Origin: Escherichia coli
Lineage (GTDB): Bacteria > Pseudomonadota > Gammaproteobacteria > Enterobacterales > Enterobacteriaceae
Strand: one strand, 5' to 3'
NCBI RefSeq assembly: GCF_046105845.1
Contig: NZ_CP151004.1
Length of the DNA: 64,000 bases
Shown here one piece after another: positions 2,650-45,842 of the stretch (position 1 is the first letter of the stretch; every line of letters starts with the position of its first letter). The position numbers and the translations under genes are program-made. Under the pieces are notes generated by a model. That model did not search any database. It saw only the letters and a list, made by a program, of their open reading frames with translations, and had not been told where the DNA came from.

Positions 2650-3645
2650 TTACGCCAGTACGCCAATTGCCAGCGCACGATCGATAAAACGAAATATCAG
2701 CTCCAGTTGGGAGCCATACTTCTCTTCAAATGTCACGGTATCCGCATGCAGCTCGTCGTGATGCTTTCTGCACAAAGGCAACACAAAGAGATCATGCGCT
2801 TTTGTACCCATTCCACCCTGACCGTGGCCTATCAGGTGGTGGGGATCATCAGCTGGCTTTCCACAACATGCGCACGGCTGCGTCTTAACCCAGCGCGTGT
2901 ACTTTTCATTAACCCAGCGGCGACGTTTGGGGCGTAACATAAAAGACTCCGGCGACTCCGGATCCACTTTCAGCGCCAGCACCTTTTTCGCTTTATCCTG
3001 GATGATGCTGGTGGCAGGAACCGAAGGCACAAGGTCACTTTCCCGGGTGACAGATGGCACAACAGGCTTCGGTAATCTCAGTGCCTTACGGGCTGCACTT
3101 TCCGGTAAGGCATCCGCCAAATCATTACGAACCAGCCACCAGCACAGTTCCGGCATTGTCACAACGTGACTGTCATCAAAACCGAGATCCCGACGCACGA
3201 CAGACAACACCCAGCGGGCACAGTTATCCGTTGCCATTGATTCCAGCCGTTCCGTGAACTGGTCACGCAGCTGGTTATCGCAGTGCCAGCACAGACGAAT
3301 TGCTCCCGGAGCGTGCCGCATTGTGGTCATGTTCTCGCTGTGCCAGTCGGAATGAGGCCACTGACAGCCCTTTTCACGAAGTAACCAGCTTTCAAGACAT
3401 TCCACGCCACCAGCACGACGGATCACTGCCTCATTGCGGAACACGGCCCGAACGGCAGGATCATCCGCCAGCGGTTGTGATGCCGCCGGAACGGCACCAC
3501 TGGCGAAAGATGAATAACGTTCCGGCTCAGGCTCCAGCAGGACACGCCCCTGCATAAACAGGGGCATCAGCTCTGAACCTGGCCTGAACAATACAATCCC
3601 CATACGCGGGGCAATTTCAGGGGTCAGTAGTGCTCTCACGGTCAC
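2650..3645 (-). CDS. Prophage protein with HNH-like motif (YdfU/DUF968-like)
   Basis: 331 aa; C-terminal CACCGKPADDPHHLIGHGQGG...HDLFVLPLCRKHHDELH resembles HNH nuclease signature. Confidence 0.7.
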   Translation of the reverse strand: MTVRALLTPEIAPRMGIVLFRPGSELMPLFMQGRVLLEPEPERYSSFASGAVPAASQPLADDPAVRAVFRNEAVIRRAGGVECLESWLLREKGCQWPHSDWHSENMTTMRHAPGAIRLCWHCDNQLRDQFTERLESMATDNCARWVLSVVRRDLGFDDSHVVTMPELCWWLVRNDLADALPESAARKALRLPKPVVPSVTRESDLVPSVPATSIIQDKAKKVLALKVDPESPESFMLRPKRRRWVNEKYTRWVKTQPCACCGKPADDPHHLIGHGQGGMGTKAHDLFVLPLCRKHHDELHADTVTFEEKYGSQLELIFRFIDRALAIGVLA

Positions 3646-3646
3646 C

Positions 3647-4444
3647 TCAATGAACGGTATCGAGCAGCTTTAACAGCTCAGGGAATCGGGATTCGAAGAA
3701 ATGCGGCTGCGTCTCGCGCGGATTTGCAGGACTGGTGATGTTCTTGCCGAACATGCAGCCTTTCGCCGTCAGCGACCAGAATTTTTTGATGTTGTTAATC
3801 GCGGTACGGCTGTATCGTTCGCGTTGTTCAACGATCCCCAGCTTCACCATCTGGTGATATGCCTGATTAGCCGTCAGGCGGATACCATACTGCCTCAGCA
3901 GTGCACTCAGAGACAGCGTGGGGCGACTTGAGCCATCGTGTGCATCAGCAGGAGCATCAATGGCATAGCGCGGTGCCAGATTCGGTAAGCCAACAGCCTC
4001 CTGGAGTTTCTGGCAGGCACCAAGCACTGAAGAGTTAGACAGGTTTAATTCCCGGCGCATAAAGTCCAGCAGAATCACACCAGCCTGCATCTTGTCAGCA
4101 GCCTGTCCGGATAATTTTTCCGGTGCGCTGGTTACCATGTCGAAAGTACGGATCACCTTCAGATGGAATGACGGGCTGATCCACATTGCATAGGCATACA
4201 CCAGTTCTTTGCAGACATACGTCCCCTGGTTATTTCCGCCACGAATAACGTTAACTGGCTCTATATTGACCGAGTTGCAAATCTGCAACTCGCTTATTAA
4301 ACGCTCAGTTTGCTCATTGCGGAGCCAGAATGCGGGCTTATGCTTATCCAGAGAACCAGCAGCCCTGTGCAGATCGTTCAGGCTGTAACGCCCATAAGCA
4401 TCACGACGAACTTCAATACCATCAATAACCATCAGATTATTCAT
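3647..4444 (-). CDS. KilA-N domain-containing prophage protein
   Basis: 265 aa; N-terminal VIDGIEVRRDAYGRYSLNDLHRAAG typical of KilA-N/APSES-type DNA-binding domain. Confidence 0.7.
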   Translation of the reverse strand: MNNLMVIDGIEVRRDAYGRYSLNDLHRAAGSLDKHKPAFWLRNEQTERLISELQICNSVNIEPVNVIRGGNNQGTYVCKELVYAYAMWISPSFHLKVIRTFDMVTSAPEKLSGQAADKMQAGVILLDFMRRELNLSNSSVLGACQKLQEAVGLPNLAPRYAIDAPADAHDGSSRPTLSLSALLRQYGIRLTANQAYHQMVKLGIVEQRERYSRTAINNIKKFWSLTAKGCMFGKNITSPANPRETQPHFFESRFPELLKLLDTVH

Positions 4445-4463: not shown

Positions 4464-4853
4464 TCAGGCGGCTGCACCCGCCGTTTTCTCGTACTTACTG
4501 ATAGTGATCTCGACCTTCCCTTCCGGGATAACCGGTCCCCACTCCACCAGCATTCTTTTCACCTGACTGTCGTCTTCCCACACACCCGCGTGGGTCAGGG
4601 CGTCAAACAGCGCCTTGTTATAGTTGTCCAGATCGCGGATCCGGTTATCCGGAGGAAACAACACGATCTCCACTGAAGCAGGTGCCGACGTTGGTTTTGG
4701 CAGACGACGTAACTGCTCAAATATTGCTGCACACGCCGCGCTCTGGAATTTGCGCCCCGCCGCGCTTATCAGGCTCTTACCAGCAAACGCCCCTTTGTTG
4801 GGGTGTCGCCAGTACGTGTTCACGCTGGGCGGGAAAGGCAGGATCAGCTTCAT
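4464..4853 (-). CDS. rusA: RusA-family Holliday junction resolvase
   Basis: 129 aa; RusA-like motifs (RDLDNYNKALFDALT...); typical lambdoid nin-region location. Confidence 0.85.
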   Translation of the reverse strand: MKLILPFPPSVNTYWRHPNKGAFAGKSLISAAGRKFQSAACAAIFEQLRRLPKPTSAPASVEIVLFPPDNRIRDLDNYNKALFDALTHAGVWEDDSQVKRMLVEWGPVIPEGKVEITISKYEKTAGAAA

Positions 4854-5209
4854 ACTTTCAGGCCCCTCTCATGTAACCAGTGGGCTGCACGCAGTCTGGC
4901 GTTTTCCTCACCGGCAAGCAGTGCGCGGATAATCCCGGCTGCCTCGCTGTCGTCGTCCTTCACTGTGGTATGAAGCGTGATACCCCGGGCCACGCCACGC
5001 TTTATCGTGATGACGCCTTTTTTCTCCAGTGCGCGAAGATGCTCCACCGCTGCATTCACCGAACGGTATCCCAGCATGGCTGCCACCTCCTGATTGGTTG
5101 GCGGGAAACCACGTTCTTTCTGATAAGAAATCAGCATATCCAGCACCTGCTGCTGGCATTGAGTTAACGTCGTCATTAAGCCCACACGTAATTCCCTGAC
5201 AGATACCAC
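4850..5209 (-). CDS. LexA N-terminal-domain-like DNA-binding protein (no peptidase domain)
   Basis: 119 aa; LTQCQQQVLDMLISYQKERGFPPTNQEVAAMLGYRSVNAAVEHLRALEKKGVITI closely resembles the LexA winged-helix DNA-binding domain. Confidence 0.6.
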   Translation of the reverse strand: MVSVRELRVGLMTTLTQCQQQVLDMLISYQKERGFPPTNQEVAAMLGYRSVNAAVEHLRALEKKGVITIKRGVARGITLHTTVKDDDSEAAGIIRALLAGEENARLRAAHWLHERGLKV

Positions 5210-5664
5210 TCATCACCCGATACAGCGCGCTTGCTGCTTTTCCGTAAGCACCGCTCACGGCGCGCCAGAAAATTGTTTCGTTCTGACTGGGAGTGGCTTT
5301 CACGGAATGCCGCCATCCACACGGTTGCAGCACGACGGTATAAGCCCCTGGACTCCAGTTCTTCAGCCTGGCGGGTCAGGCACAAAATTACCCGGGGATC
5401 GTTAGTGCCGACATAGAAATTGCGCACAGGTCTGGTTTCACGAACTGGTTGTGGTTCCGGCTCCTGCGCTCTCTCAGTCAGGCGCGGGAAATGTCTGCGT
5501 GTATTTCCTTCACAACGGTGAGCCACACGCCCACTCTGACGTAACTTGCTTGCTGACTGCAGAACGCGCTGCCGTGAGTAACCTGCAAAAGCATCTGCAA
5601 TGTCTCCGGAAGTACACCCCGGATGGGCTTCAATGAATTTCTGAACTTCATTCAAAAGACTCAT
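5176..5664 (-). CDS. PerC/Pch-family-like transcriptional regulator
   Basis: 162 aa; C-terminal LESRGLYRRAATVWMAAF matches the conserved PerC-family RRAA..W motif (from memory). Confidence 0.5.
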   Translation of the reverse strand: MSLLNEVQKFIEAHPGCTSGDIADAFAGYSRQRVLQSASKLRQSGRVAHRCEGNTRRHFPRLTERAQEPEPQPVRETRPVRNFYVGTNDPRVILCLTRQAEELESRGLYRRAATVWMAAFRESHSQSERNNFLARRERCLRKSSKRAVSGDEWYLSGNYVWA

Positions 5665-5666
5665 GA

Positions 5667-6485
5667 TTACCCCCTGAATCCTGCCGGGATCTGGCTGTAG
5701 TCCACGTTGTCGTAACTGGCTTTGAAGTACGGGTCCTCGCGTCTGGCTGCAGATACCGCAGGAACTTCCCAGGATTCTTCGAAATGACGATCCGGACCAA
5801 AGAACGTGACAGCCTGTTTCACAAATTGTGTGCCGCTGTTACCCATCGCAGATACCCAGCCCGCGTAGCGTTTCACACCTTCCAGCATGGTTTCGGGTTT
5901 TACCCCCTCATTCAAACGGGCTTTCCAGGCTTTGAAGGCTGCAGATTTTGAATTGCCACCAGCACGTTTGGGGTATGCCAGCCATGCCTGCTCAAACTCC
6001 GGAGAGTATTCCGGTCGGTTTGAACGAACTCGCACAGACTCATCAGCAGATGCACCAACAGCTATTGGTTCATTGACTGGTTCTTTGACTGGTTCAAAAG
6101 AGTGACTGGTTCTGGGTGAATCTCCTGCACCACCCCCTGGTGCAACTCCTGCACTACCTGGTGAATTTGCTGCACCAGATAGTGAATTATTTGCACTACC
6201 CCCTAGTGAATCTCCTGCACCATCAAGATGAAGGAGATAGATATTACTTGAGTTACCTTTTTCACCTTTCCGGGTGACTTTTTTTACCAGCCCGGAATCA
6301 CAAAGGGCCGCAATATGATTCATCACAGAACGTTTGCTAATCTCGCACTGGTCAGCAATATGCTGGTAGCTGGGCCAGCACTCACCCTGATCGCTGGCAT
6401 TATCAGCCAGCTTGATCAGAACCAGTTTTCGCAATGGATTACCCACTCGAATTTTCATCGCTTTAACCATCAGCTCCATACTCAT
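5667..6485 (-). CDS. Phage replication initiation protein (O-like) with DnaT-like C-terminus
   Basis: ORF 5667..6524 (TTG); likely ATG start at 6485 overlapping upstream stop; N-terminal winged-helix, Gly/Ser/Pro-rich linker encoded by iterons, C-terminal ...YSQIPAGFRG like host DnaT. Confidence 0.7.
   Translation of the reverse strand: MSMELMVKAMKIRVGNPLRKLVLIKLADNASDQGECWPSYQHIADQCEISKRSVMNHIAALCDSGLVKKVTRKGEKGNSSNIYLLHLDGAGDSLGGSANNSLSGAANSPGSAGVAPGGGAGDSPRTSHSFEPVKEPVNEPIAVGASADESVRVRSNRPEYSPEFEQAWLAYPKRAGGNSKSAAFKAWKARLNEGVKPETMLEGVKRYAGWVSAMGNSGTQFVKQAVTFFGPDRHFEESWEVPAVSAARREDPYFKASYDNVDYSQIPAGFRG
6074..6222. repeat. Iteron array (putative prophage replication origin) inside replication gene
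   Basis: Three copies of tgactggttc (6074, 6086, 6103) then five ~18-bp repeats related to ggtgaatctcctgcacca starting at 6115, 6139, 6160, 6181, 6205 (21-24 bp period). Confidence 0.6.
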
Positions 6486-6718
6486 GCTGCACCTCCGAGA
6501 TGCTTCATGTTTTTTCCGGAGCAAAAGGCTATAAGCGGCATACTGATGCGGTAATTACGGCCCAGCGGTTCACAAATCACCTTCTGACATTCACGGTCAA
6601 CCAGGCTAACACGTAGAACATGCCCTGCAGGCGTGGTGTACCACTGCCCAACTGTAGGAATTGATGTTTTTTTACGCTGAAGCAAACGGCAAATATTGAG
6701 GATCAACGGATTAAGCAT
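6482..6718 (-). CDS. Hypothetical prophage protein
   Basis: 78-aa ORF translationally coupled (ATGA overlap) to the replication gene. Confidence 0.45.
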   Translation of the reverse strand: MLNPLILNICRLLQRKKTSIPTVGQWYTTPAGHVLRVSLVDRECQKVICEPLGRNYRISMPLIAFCSGKNMKHLGGAA

Positions 6719-7547
6719 GACGATGCCCTCCGCTGATATTCAGGAGACGGTGAATATGAAAATTAGCCTTATCCGCCAGACGAATACGTTCAGCCTGCAA
6801 GTTAAGAAGGGTTTCTACCAAAACCTGATGCGCCTGCGGATCCGAAAGAGTTACCTTGCGCAGAGCACGTAGTGCAGTTGTTACATAACTGAGTTTATGT
6901 AAGTCTTCATCATTCAGACGAGTGAGGGCTGGGACAGTAGCCATGATGGCAGCCTCCGATAACAGTGAATTACCTTCACCACCGGAAACGCCAATTTCGC
7001 TGGTGGTGAACTGAACGGGGTTGGCGTAACCGGCGTTATCGGAAACCGGCGCACCTTTCGGTGCCCCCGTCCAGCCCACCATAATTTGGGTGTGCACAGA
7101 CACAGACGATAAAAAAGACGCTGGCGCGTCATATATCGCCGATAACATTTCCAGGACGCCAATCCCGTCACCCGCTTTATAAGGTGCCTGAACAGTGTAA
7201 CGTCCCGGAATGGCAGAATCAATGTGCTGGTGGTCCTTCACACTCAACAAAATCACGCCTGAATTTCCACAAAGGACTAAAGCACTCATGCGGGTAGTCT
7301 TTGCGAAGATAGATAACGCGCTGTGTTTCTGGTTCCCAACGAATAACATGGACATAAAGCCCTCTTCCGTCACGAAACCAGCGGTTAAGTTCCCGCACAA
7401 CTCGCCCCCCACAGTCAGGTAAAGTTCTCTGTGGTTACTTACAGCCAGGTGATTTGGTAATCTGCATTCATGCCGTAACAACAGGTGTTCAGCGACACTG
7501 ACCACCAGCTGTTGCGACAAACGGTTATTTGCCGTTAAACTGTTCAT
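6711..7547 (-). CDS. Hypothetical prophage early-region protein
   Basis: 278-aa ORF in the cro-side early operon; no motif recognised. Confidence 0.55.
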   Translation of the reverse strand: MNSLTANNRLSQQLVVSVAEHLLLRHECRLPNHLAVSNHRELYLTVGGELCGNLTAGFVTEEGFMSMLFVGNQKHSALSIFAKTTRMSALVLCGNSGVILLSVKDHQHIDSAIPGRYTVQAPYKAGDGIGVLEMLSAIYDAPASFLSSVSVHTQIMVGWTGAPKGAPVSDNAGYANPVQFTTSEIGVSGGEGNSLLSEAAIMATVPALTRLNDEDLHKLSYVTTALRALRKVTLSDPQAHQVLVETLLNLQAERIRLADKANFHIHRLLNISGGHRHA

Positions 7548-8107
7548 GCGTTAGTTTCTCCACAGACACAAAACGCCACGACGCCCGGAGCTGCACACTC
7601 GCGGGCGTCACTCTTTTCTGGAGCGCAAAAGATTTTGTAGACCAGTGCTGCATGCTCTTGGAGCTTCGAAATTGACAGATACAACTCATCATTAATTGCT
7701 GTCTGCTCGTGTGGCTCCACGACCCCATCTTCGATTGCCGAACGAATCTGCTTTGAGTAATTCCCGATCTGTTCGATGACTTCCAGCAGGCGCTGGTTTA
7801 TATCGGCGTTCTCTACTTCCTCAATTTCAGGAAGCGATACGAACACCCCACCAGCAGACTGTGCGACAGCATCCGCAATGTAGTGAGTGTCAGCCGCGCG
7901 CTGTAAAACCATTGCCCATCCCAGCGGGAAAATCTGATCGCCATCGGCACGAAGGCGGTTAAATAATGCGTTCTCTGTTACATCCAGCCAGTCAGCTGCT
8001 TCAGCGTAACCACCCGGCAACGCTGCGATAGTTTTTCTGACAGCTTTCACGTACCACTCAGGCTGTTTTTCTACTTTCCAGTGATACTTACCCACGGTTA
8101 GCCTCAT
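7544..8107 (-). CDS. Hypothetical prophage regulatory protein (cII position; possibly YdaT-like)
   Basis: 187-aa ORF immediately downstream of cro-like gene. Confidence 0.5.
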   Translation of the reverse strand: MRLTVGKYHWKVEKQPEWYVKAVRKTIAALPGGYAEAADWLDVTENALFNRLRADGDQIFPLGWAMVLQRAADTHYIADAVAQSAGGVFVSLPEIEEVENADINQRLLEVIEQIGNYSKQIRSAIEDGVVEPHEQTAINDELYLSISKLQEHAALVYKIFCAPEKSDARECAAPGVVAFCVCGETNA

Positions 8108-8138: not shown

Positions 8139-8339
8139 TTAATCTTTCGGATAGATATCCGGTCTTAAGTCAGATTTCGTAATTGCACCTGACGTGCATT
8201 GCTCAAGTTTTTTCGCCAGCACAAAACTGGCTTTTTTATAACCATTGAAAACCAGCCGTAAGTAGCCAGGTGTTGAGCCAACTTTTCCGGCCAACTCGCC
8301 CTGCTGTTCTTTGGTTAAAGAGTCCCAATACGCTTTCAT
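8139..8339 (-). CDS. Cro-like HTH regulator
   Basis: ORF 8139..8444; probable start at internal ATG 8339 (MKAYWDSLTKEQQGELAGKVGSTPGYL...); divergent from repressor gene. Confidence 0.6.
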   Translation of the reverse strand: MKAYWDSLTKEQQGELAGKVGSTPGYLRLVFNGYKKASFVLAKKLEQCTSGAITKSDLRPDIYPKD

Positions 8340-8394
8340 ACAATATGTACCTCCAGTATACATATTACATGATTGAAATGAACCTTCAAGATAC

Positions 8395-8413
8395 TTGTAC
8401 CTTATCGGTACAA
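8395..8413. promoter_or_regulatory. Putative operator palindrome in cro/cI intergenic region
   Basis: TTGTACC-ttatc-GGTACAA perfect 7-bp inverted repeat between divergent cro-like and cI-like genes. Confidence 0.35.
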
Positions 8414-8429: not shown

Positions 8430-9104
8430 ATGAAAACAATCCATGACATCCGGCGGTCTAACGCCAGAAAACTGAGAGATGGTGTTGGCGGAAATTCATC
8501 CTTTGCCACCATGATTGATCGCGAGCCAACCCAAACCAGCAGGTTTATGGGGGATGGCGCTACTAAAAATATCGGTGACAGCATGGCACGGCACATCGAA
8601 AAATGTTTCGACCTGCCTGTCGGATGGCTTGATCAAGAACACCAGACAACGAACATCACAAAAAAACCTGATGTTTCAATCACTAACAAACAAATAACGT
8701 TAGTCCCTGTCATATCATGGGTACAGGCCGGAGCATGGAAAGAAGTTGGCTATTCTGAGGTTGATTTGAGCACAGCAGAAACGTATCCCTGCCCTGTACC
8801 CTGTGGCGAAATGACTTATATCTTGCGGGTGATTGGTGATTCAATGATTGATGAGTACCGCCCTGGAGACATGATTTTTGTTGATCCCGAAGTCCCTGCC
8901 TGCCACGGTGACGACGTTATTGCATTGATGCACGATACAGGCGAAACCACCTTCAAGCGATTGATAGAAGATGGAACACAGCGTTATCTCAAAGCATTAA
9001 ACCCAAACTGGCCTGAGCCTTACATTAAGATTAACGGTAATTGCTCTATAATTGGTACAGTGATTTTCTCGGGAAAACCAAGAAGATACACAATAAAGGC
9101 CTAA
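8430..9104 (+). CDS. CI-like prophage repressor (HTH + S24 LexA-type peptidase domain)
   Basis: 224 aa; C-terminal LRVIGDSMIDEYRPGDMIFVDPE ... FKRL resembles S24 Ser/Lys autoprotease. Confidence 0.85.
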   Translation: MKTIHDIRRSNARKLRDGVGGNSSFATMIDREPTQTSRFMGDGATKNIGDSMARHIEKCFDLPVGWLDQEHQTTNITKKPDVSITNKQITLVPVISWVQAGAWKEVGYSEVDLSTAETYPCPVPCGEMTYILRVIGDSMIDEYRPGDMIFVDPEVPACHGDDVIALMHDTGETTFKRLIEDGTQRYLKALNPNWPEPYIKINGNCSIIGTVIFSGKPRRYTIKA

Positions 9105-15367: not shown

Positions 15368-15587
15368 TACTCACCTTGTACAAATCGCAAAACACCTCTG
15401 CTGCTTTGTACATTATGTACAAGCATATGTACAGATTTTTGATGAAAGCAACCTGATCGATTTAAAGTTACATGAAAGAATTTTCAATTAAAGAAGCCAC
15501 ATAACTATATGTATTTAAATGAGTTATATAACCAGACCTCAATTAACTGAAAGGATTTTGAAAGAGTAAAAGAGCTTTAATTTGGGA

Positions 15588-45615: not shown

Positions 45616-45749
45616 TCATTATTTTCTGGCGCACCTTTCCGGTGCGCTTTTTATTATTTTACGCCAATCATAACTCACGCAAATATATTTAAATCATTCC
45701 AGAAATTGCCTATTTTATTCTATTTTTAGCTGGACTTTCCCTGTATTTA

Positions 45750-45765
45750 CTGATGATATATCCAG
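45750..45765. promoter_or_regulatory. Putative LexA (SOS) box upstream of symE
   Basis: CTGATGATATATCCAG (CTG-N10-CAG) about 80 bp upstream of symE ATG. Confidence 0.4.
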
Positions 45766-45842
45766 GTATTTAGCGCGGTGCGGATGTGCGCCAACACACC
45801 CGCACCGCTCATCACAATCACTATTCCAGGAGAATAGCAGTT

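Follow-up and report, generated by a model that had tools for sequence, protein, structure and literature searches.

A LexA-type DNA-binding protein with a conserved helical tail in the early operon of an Escherichia coli prophage

In a 64,000-nucleotide stretch of Escherichia coli DNA (contig NZ_CP151004.1 of RefSeq assembly GCF_046105845.1; hereafter, the window), the left ~17 kb belong to a lambdoid prophage resembling SfV, of which they make up the early half. This region contains a gene on the minus strand, at 4850..5176 (stop codon at 4850-4852), which encodes a 108-aa DNA-binding protein of the LexA type; that is, a winged helix-turn-helix closely similar to that of LexA, followed by a short linker and a conserved two-helix hairpin. 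Judging from sequence comparison and structure prediction, residues 1-69 very probably still bind DNA in the manner of LexA, because the fold is the same and because the scaffold, the wing and several of the contacts (Gln8, Thr27, Ser39, Asn41, Lys53 and Arg64-Gly65-Ile66) have been kept. Our reading of its function is tentative, and we hold it to be a little short of probable: the protein may be a DNA-binding regulator of the lytic phase, insensitive to RecA, with a specificity that has shifted from that of LexA and with a helical tail for dimerisation or for binding a partner.

A LexA winged helix without the S24 domain

A preliminary description of this DNA had reported, from a 119-aa open reading frame (ORF), a likeness to the N-terminal winged helix of LexA unaccompanied by an S24 peptidase domain, and both parts of that statement are confirmed. 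The Pfam profile LexA_DNA_bind (PF01726; cut-off 23.7 bits) matches residues 12-76 of the ORF over all of its 65 positions, with a score of 68.5 bits (E=4.3e-19). In a BLASTP comparison, residues 1-68 of E. coli LexA align with the 108-aa protein without a gap, i.e., the residue numbering is the same in both, and 35 of the 68 positions are identical (51%, E=2e-21). Against PDB sequences, phmmer ranks 1LEA, a structure of LexA's DNA-binding domain, first (E=8e-16). A structural model of the 108-aa protein, obtained with AlphaFold2 (AF2), has a mean predicted local distance difference test score (pLDDT) of 82.7, with values of 78-89 in the winged helix, whose predicted elements are helices at 6-22 and 28-35, the recognition helix at 40-52, and wing strands at 56-58 and 66-68. 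When Foldseek superposes it on the LexA chain of 3JSO, a crystal structure of LexA bound to DNA, the model deviates by a root-mean-square distance (rmsd) of 1.0 Å over 67 columns. From the Pfam match, the identity to LexA, the AF2 model and the 3JSO superposition, the winged helix-turn-helix is assigned to residues 1-69 (4970..5176, minus strand); from the alignments and the AF2 model, the linker and hairpin are assigned to residues 70-108 (4853..4969, minus strand).

Pfam gives no match in the 108-aa protein to Peptidase_S24, the domain that in LexA carries Ser119/Lys156 and is also responsible for dimerisation. The profile TIGR00498, which defines lexA equivalogs, scores 67 bits, below its cut-off of 111, and is covered at positions 1-91 of 203 only. 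PHROG 362 ('transcriptional repressor'), by comparison, is matched along its entire length, with ORF residues 12-119 on profile positions 1-106 of 106 (E=5e-58). Lacking an S24 domain, the protein cannot self-cleave or be inactivated on RecA*, as had been anticipated. It had also been stated that the prophage has a separate cI-like repressor with an S24 domain, and this is correct: the gene at 8430-9104 (plus strand; annotated as ymfK or cI), which diverges from a cro-like gene, encodes a protein with a Peptidase_S24 domain (E=1.5e-26). This protein is the RecA-cleavable repressor of the prophage and fills the role of lambda CI. The repressors of that kind, lambda CI and other S24 repressors, combine a helix-turn-helix with a self-cleaving S24 domain and are encoded divergently from cro; the LexA-type gene is not of this kind, and lies in the lytic operon.

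The LexA-type ORF is a real gene, although the length and start first given for it do not stand. The ORF listing contains a mechanical ORF of 119 codons, at 4850-5209 on the minus strand, which opens with a GTG at 5209. This GTG is probably not used. Because the PHROG 362 and Pfam matches both begin at residue 12 of the ORF, we take the ATG at 5176 as the true start, which gives 108 residues rather than 119, and a gene of 327 nt. Exactly this 327-nt gene is called by the Prokaryotic Genome Annotation Pipeline (PGAP) on an identical E. coli chromosome segment, and among the matches listed, relatives of the E. coli type begin with MT(T/M/V)LT. The 108-aa product is identical to WP_000210132.1, from the annotation of strain Ec1119, and to a protein of phage 2H10.

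Compared with E. coli LexA (1LEA, 3JSO), the phage protein thus has the same fold in its N-terminal domain and shares Ser39, Asn41, Ala42, Glu45, Lys53 and Arg64-Gly65-Ile66, but it has neither the S24 domain nor a functional cleavage site; in their place is a 39-residue segment consisting of the linker and the hairpin. It also differs from LexA in being encoded by a phage, in a lytic operon, with no SOS box upstream. Of five features that define LexA, the protein lacks four: it has no S24 domain and no cleavage site, its set of contact residues is incomplete, and autoregulatory SOS boxes are missing. At NCBI, it goes by 'LexA family transcriptional regulator' and in some entries, wrongly, by 'LexA repressor'; the latter label, given by PGAP on some genomes, is an over-annotation. 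The window protein belongs, over its full length, to PHROG 362 and to the group that NCBI calls 'LexA family transcriptional regulator', and shows no difference from them. A phage protein with only a LexA domain has therefore already been catalogued by annotation, by similarity only; what is new relative to those entries is the conserved hairpin of the tail, the placement in the nin region, the divergence of the contact residues, and the lack of SOS boxes from the window's prophage portion.

Base-reading residues and SOS boxes

Secondary sources were used to define the contact residues of LexA. DNA contacts have been ascribed to Ser39, Asn41, Ala42, Glu44 and Glu45 (PMC3091678); Asn41 and Glu45 contact bases, and Arg28 contacts the backbone (bioRxiv 10.1101/2020.07.14.201889). 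The phage protein retains four of these six residues, i.e., Ser39, Asn41, Ala42 and Glu45. Glu44 is replaced by Val and Arg28 by Asn; in addition, Pro40 is replaced by Val. In an alignment of 26 members of the family, position 44 is never Glu, but Val, Ala, Thr, Phe, Leu or Tyr, and position 45 is Glu, Asp, Leu, Ile, Ala or Gly. Positions 42-45 read, by subfamily, AAVE, SAVE, TIAG, AATD, AAFE, AAAE, AVLL and TVFI, among others. By contrast, the LexA proteins with an S24 domain retrieved in the same searches have Glu44 in 40 of 41 cases and the motif NAAE[E/D]H in 39 of 41. The scaffold and wing residues Gln8, Thr27, Lys53, Arg64, Gly65 and Ile66 are conserved across the family alignments, whereas the base-reading positions are fixed inside each subfamily and unlike between subfamilies. 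This pattern leads us to expect private operators, rather than the constant host motif CTGT-N8-ACAG; that is, a specificity private to the phage is suggested by base-reading positions that differ both from LexA and from one subfamily to another. The proposal that the uncleavable protein occupies SOS boxes, which the preliminary description had put forward, is weakened by these replacements and not supported by them, so that its interpretation as a whole is partly supported.

The proposal nevertheless deserves to be stated in full. The protein could be a RecA-proof surrogate of LexA that, dimerised through its tail, binds host SOS boxes and silences part or all of the SOS regulon again after induction; its targets would be recA, ruvAB, sulA, colicins and the LexA-controlled antirepressors of rival prophages, at a time when host LexA is being destroyed. 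We consider this unlikely, albeit not for want of arguments. The 51% identity and the rmsd of 1.0 Å to the LexA DNA-binding domain, the missing S24 domain, and the retention of Ser39, Asn41, Ala42, Glu45 and the wing Arg64-Gly65-Ile66 all speak for such a surrogate. Engineered fusions of LexA(1-87) to a zipper repress SOS operators, so that a LexA DNA-binding domain with a helical dimeriser is a workable design, and this precedent, too, is in its favor. Furthermore, mimics of the SOS machinery are encoded near the gene in relatives. A DinI homologue (E=2.5e-25) precedes the LexA-type gene in relatives of the Klebsiella/Enterobacter type (L010-L012, 3425-3658), and a 95-aa protein consisting of a stand-alone RecA C-terminal domain (PF21096, E=9e-10) precedes it in one locus (L015, 3310-3597). 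Because of these neighbours, we keep some weight on an SOS-related role. However, neither gene is present in the window, and both belong to a distant subfamily only, not to the prophage of the window. Glu44 and Arg28 are replaced, Glu44 never occurs in the family, the Klebsiella subfamily has Leu44-Leu45, and the retrieved LexA proteins are near-invariant at these positions; a constant host motif should have kept the base-reading positions constant. A stand-alone RecA C-terminal domain in the nin region of a prophage is in any case unusual.

A broader version of the same idea, in which a RecA-insensitive surrogate silences or rewires the SOS regulon at induction, acting either on SOS boxes despite the Glu44Val replacement or on shifted 'pseudo-SOS' operators in host and phage, appears quite unlikely to us. 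If true, such a protein could affect mutagenesis, the induction of Shiga-toxin phages, and the competition among co-resident prophages, and the DinI and RecA C-terminal-domain neighbours of the distant relatives would make of the nin region a place where mimics of the SOS machinery collect. Contact with SOS boxes would make the protein a phage-borne brake on the SOS response, which is a driver of mutagenesis, of tolerance to antibiotics and of the induction of Shiga-toxin phages. If it has an operator of its own, it would be one more lytic-phase regulator of a lambdoid phage, and a natural case in which LexA's DNA-binding domain has been re-targeted. Neither outcome would overturn current understanding.

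SOS boxes were searched for with a matrix derived from 21 sites of E. coli. By this matrix, no credible SOS box lies in the prophage portion, where the top score is 11.1 bits, and the scan found no SOS-box-like site upstream of the LexA-type gene, which has no promoter region of its own. The one good match in the window, an SOS-box-like site, TACTGATGATATATCCAGGT, at 45748-45767, scores 15.5 bits; some 75 nt downstream of it is symE, a toxin gene between hsdS and mcrB. As symE is a LexA-regulated gene, this site served as positive control for the matrix.

The helical tail and a proposed role in the lytic operon

The protein had been described as consisting only of a LexA-like domain, and in this respect the description is to be amended, since a conserved two-helix hairpin follows the winged helix. 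The linker, residues 70-75, is acidic, variable and prone to insertions and deletions, and the AF2 model has pLDDT values below 50 at 71-75. The tail comprises ~30 conserved residues and two predicted helices, at 74-88 and 93-103, with pLDDT values of 86-88. Ala93, Ala97 and Leu101 are nearly invariant throughout the family. In the E. coli-type subfamily, whose conservation was read from 16 alleles with 79-96% identity, the tail core is invariant (Ile82, Ile83, Leu86, Leu87, Ala97, Trp100, Leu101, His102, Glu103 and Arg104). Like the tail core, the recognition helix and the wing are unchanged across these 16 alleles, while the linker differs and contains insertions and deletions. Both modules, i.e., the winged helix and the tail, are clearly under purifying selection.

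A profile of the tail matches no PDB sequence. The Foldseek matches in the PDB that reach over the tail are winged-helix regulators with C-terminal helical dimerisation modules, at rmsd values of 7-13 Å and E-values of ~0.01. As in the phage protein, a winged helix is followed by helices in the BlaI/MecI-like Rv1846c, in MarR/MepR and in DtxR/MntR; these have no sequence kinship with it and superpose very poorly, so that the likeness is one of analogy only. Most likely, the hairpin stands in for the catalytic and dimerisation domain of LexA and provides dimerisation or a partner contact; a role of the tail in dimerisation is suggested by the very fact that LexA's own dimeriser is missing.

A different origin of the tail would make the protein a vestige of LexA, either what is left of a lexA gene that was captured and is now decaying, or a decoy or trans-substrate in which the cleavage-site region is kept. 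This idea draws on an HMMER alignment that places residues 83-90 on the LexA linker and the Ala84-Gly85 region; LLAGEE (residues 86-91) is thereby paired, in what is a weak alignment, with the LexA cleavage region VAAGEP, with an Ala-Gly pair at 88-89. That pair varies even among close alleles (AG, AN, AK or VG) and is lacking in distant members, and the region is predicted to be helical with pLDDT values of 86-88. Since the pair is not conserved, we dropped the notion of a retained cleavage site (an equivalent of Ala84-Gly85) or of a decoy in the tail. Moreover, the full-length protein is conserved in thousands of genomes, and its helix, wing and tail core are invariant. A vestigial fragment is therefore extremely unlikely.

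The position of the gene bears on when its product is made. From cro to Q, every gene is encoded by the minus strand, and most overlap or abut: a cro-like gene (8139-8339), a cII-like gene (7544-8107), an Ash-family gene (6711-7547), a replication protein gene (5667-6524), yfdN, which encodes a PerC-family regulator (5176-5664), the LexA-type gene, the gene of the Holliday-junction resolvase RusA (4464-4853; Pfam RusA, E=9e-15), and then, in the downstream nin-type module, the genes of a KilA-N protein (3647-4444), of a DUF968/HNH protein (2650-3645) and of the Q antiterminator (1884-2678). The stop codon of yfdN, the upstream neighbour, overlaps the ATG of the LexA-type gene as TAATG, and the stop codon of the latter overlaps the ATG of rusA as ATGA. 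No sigma-70-like promoter was found on the coding strand just upstream of the LexA-type gene. Given its position in the operon, the overlaps of its start and stop codons with its neighbours, and the absence of a promoter dedicated to it, we infer that the gene is expressed as a delayed-early product of the rightward operon; i.e., it would be made after induction or infection, and not in the quiescent lysogen.

We propose, then, that the LexA-type protein would be made from the early operon that is read rightward (cro, the cII-like gene, the replication gene, yfdN, LexA-type gene, rusA, kilA-N, DUF968, Q) and that, during lytic development, its winged helix would read an operator of its own, derived from that of LexA, as a transcription factor private to the phage. 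The hairpin would supply dimerisation or a partner contact in place of the S24 domain of LexA, and the protein, having no such domain, would stay active despite RecA*. The nearest analogue that has been characterised is gp6 of GIL01, a Bacillus tectivirus. This 66-aa truncated LexA homologue binds GaCACAn nTGTGaC at P3, a late promoter, from which it activates transcription (PMC6182141). Like the protein studied here, it is phage-encoded and essentially a LexA-type DNA-binding domain, and it is the product of an early gene in a temperate phage with SOS-dependent induction (PMC6182141). It shows that LexA-domain proteins of phages can evolve a private palindromic operator. It differs in having no C-terminal tail, in its kinship with Firmicute LexA, in its origin from the Tectiviridae, which belong to a different virus realm, and in its genomic context. 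A full-text literature search found no functional study of, or experiment on, a LexA family of the PHROG 362 type, gp6 of GIL01 being the sole precedent.

Several observations weigh against this proposal. First, scans for palindromes and half-sites in the window and in divergent loci found no candidate operator for the LexA-type protein. Second, the intergenic gaps next to the gene are nearly nil and would hardly accommodate an autoregulated promoter. Third, the analogue is a distant one: BLASTP gives no significant alignment between gp6 and the phage protein, and gp6 is tail-less. Fourth, with four of the six LexA contacts kept in the E. coli-type subfamily, an overlap with SOS boxes is possible, on the basis of the aligned residues. 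Lastly, when two copies were linked through Gly-Ser and modelled with AF2, admittedly a weak stand-in for a dimer test, the predicted template modelling score (pTM) was 0.36, which speaks neither for nor against dimerisation through the tail.

Relatives, gene neighbours and other palindromes

Among 5,426 complete genomes of E. coli, 2,696 match the 1.3-kb segment from yfdN to rusA, and a single genome may hold as many as 4 copies; that is, the gene lies on a segment present in about half of the complete genomes of the species. It is also found in Stx2 phages, in the serotype-converting phages of Shigella and in cdt phages. Records of phages that encode the LexA-type protein number 61, among them SfII, SfIV, cdtI, 2H10, Ayreon and many Stx2a and Stx2c phages, and the proteins of SfV, SfII, mEp460, cdtI and Stx2 phages are 93-100% identical to that of the window. 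Their labels vary: orf42 of SfV is called 'unknown', the mEp460 protein 'LexA DNA binding domain protein', and those of Stx2a_1447 and other Stx2 phages 'repressor, lexA family'. An HMMER search retrieves full-length relatives at 40-55% identity, and a profile search adds a large subfamily of 118-135 aa in Klebsiella and Enterobacter. Down to ~40% identity, the family is kept in E. coli, Citrobacter, Salmonella, Hafnia, Klebsiella and Enterobacter.

Nine distinct contexts of the gene were compared, namely that of the window and SfV and those of relatives at 40-49% identity in other Enterobacterales. Each of the nine has the gene in its nin region, flanked by the replication genes on one side and Q on the other, with a DUF968 gene downstream. 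A rusA gene is also downstream in eight of the nine, directly in five and one gene further in three; where it follows directly, the genes overlap by 4 bp in four contexts and are separated by 2 nt in one. The upstream replication modules differ among the nine contexts. The associated RusA proteins, too, belong to two very different subtypes, with MKLILPFPPSVNTYWR... in one case and MKAYSITPMGKPRMTRADKWKK... in the other (the window, 4464-4853, versus loci L007, L014 and L015). The position in the nin region has thus been kept while the resolvase itself has been swapped.

This arrangement raises the alternative that the protein is an accessory factor of phage recombination or junction processing, which would bind or bend DNA and recruit or restrain RusA or the HNH-type DUF968 protein. 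NinH of lambda, a small DNA-binding protein encoded beside rap, is a comparable case, and the constancy of DUF968 (nine of nine contexts) and RusA (eight of nine) downstream, despite the two RusA subtypes and the differing replication modules, is what such a factor would have in its favor. Yet the nin order of lambdoid phages is conserved for reasons other than interaction, overlapping codons are usual throughout this operon, and the abundant Klebsiella subfamily keeps the LexA-type gene without RusA. Conversely, several phages and prophages that carry RusA, such as phage 82 and DLP12, are not known to carry a LexA-type gene. Synteny in the nin region is only weak evidence of functional coupling, and for this reason we rate an accessory role for RusA or DUF968 as very unlikely, though not at zero.

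In the N-terminally extended subfamily (118-135 aa), a conserved gene of ~77 aa is always found upstream of the LexA-type gene, and one of ~67 aa usually downstream. These flanking genes are 48-56% identical across loci (5713-5961 and 6405-6608 in L007, with equivalents in L010 and L014-L016), have no Pfam match, and do not occur in the window. A further difference among carriers concerns the 5176 junction. In SfV, mEp460, Stx2 phages and most other carriers, a dam gene (N6-adenine methyltransferase) of 650 bp lies between yfdN and the LexA-type gene; it is missing here, leaving a clean TAATG. Some database entries contain Dam-LexA-domain fusion proteins (PF05869+PF01726), which are probably frameshifts or mis-calls. 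Searches with the PADLOC defence models gave nothing relevant.

The scans for palindromes also returned sites that we do not assign to the LexA-type protein. The inverted repeats in the window and in the divergent loci were terminators, cI/cro operators or unshared, and none was common to the loci; variants of CTGT with one substitution, at spacings of 4-14, were artefacts of codon composition, e.g., CTGG/CCAG. A perfect palindrome with 7-bp arms, CTGTATAcggccattTATACAG (CTGTATA-N8-TATACAG), at 175-196, ends 10 nt before the start codon of ynfU. Its half-sites resemble those of SOS boxes (TACTGTATAC), with a spacing of 14 rather than 8. The same DNA is found in phages HannyBb, Tritos and PhiR42_1, three phages that do not figure among the 60 records listed of the 61 that match the LexA-type protein. 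Most phages with the LexA-type gene lack that DNA, and the palindrome was rejected as a coupled operator; it may serve some other regulator as operator, or form a hairpin in the 5' untranslated region. A perfect 22-bp palindrome, CGAGTTGCAaatcTGCAACTCG, lies at 4271-4292, within the KilA-N coding sequence and ~170 bp downstream of rusA. The divergent loci have no equivalent, and it may be due to chance. Between cI and cro, there are inverted repeats at 8342-8366 (ATATGTA-N9-TACATAT) and 8395-8413 (TTGTACC-N5-GGTACAA), and a further palindrome, TTGTACA-N3-TGTACAA, lies ~7 kb off, at 15406-15422, near the left arm of the prophage. These three sites are presumably operators of cI and Cro, with one copy remote from the others.

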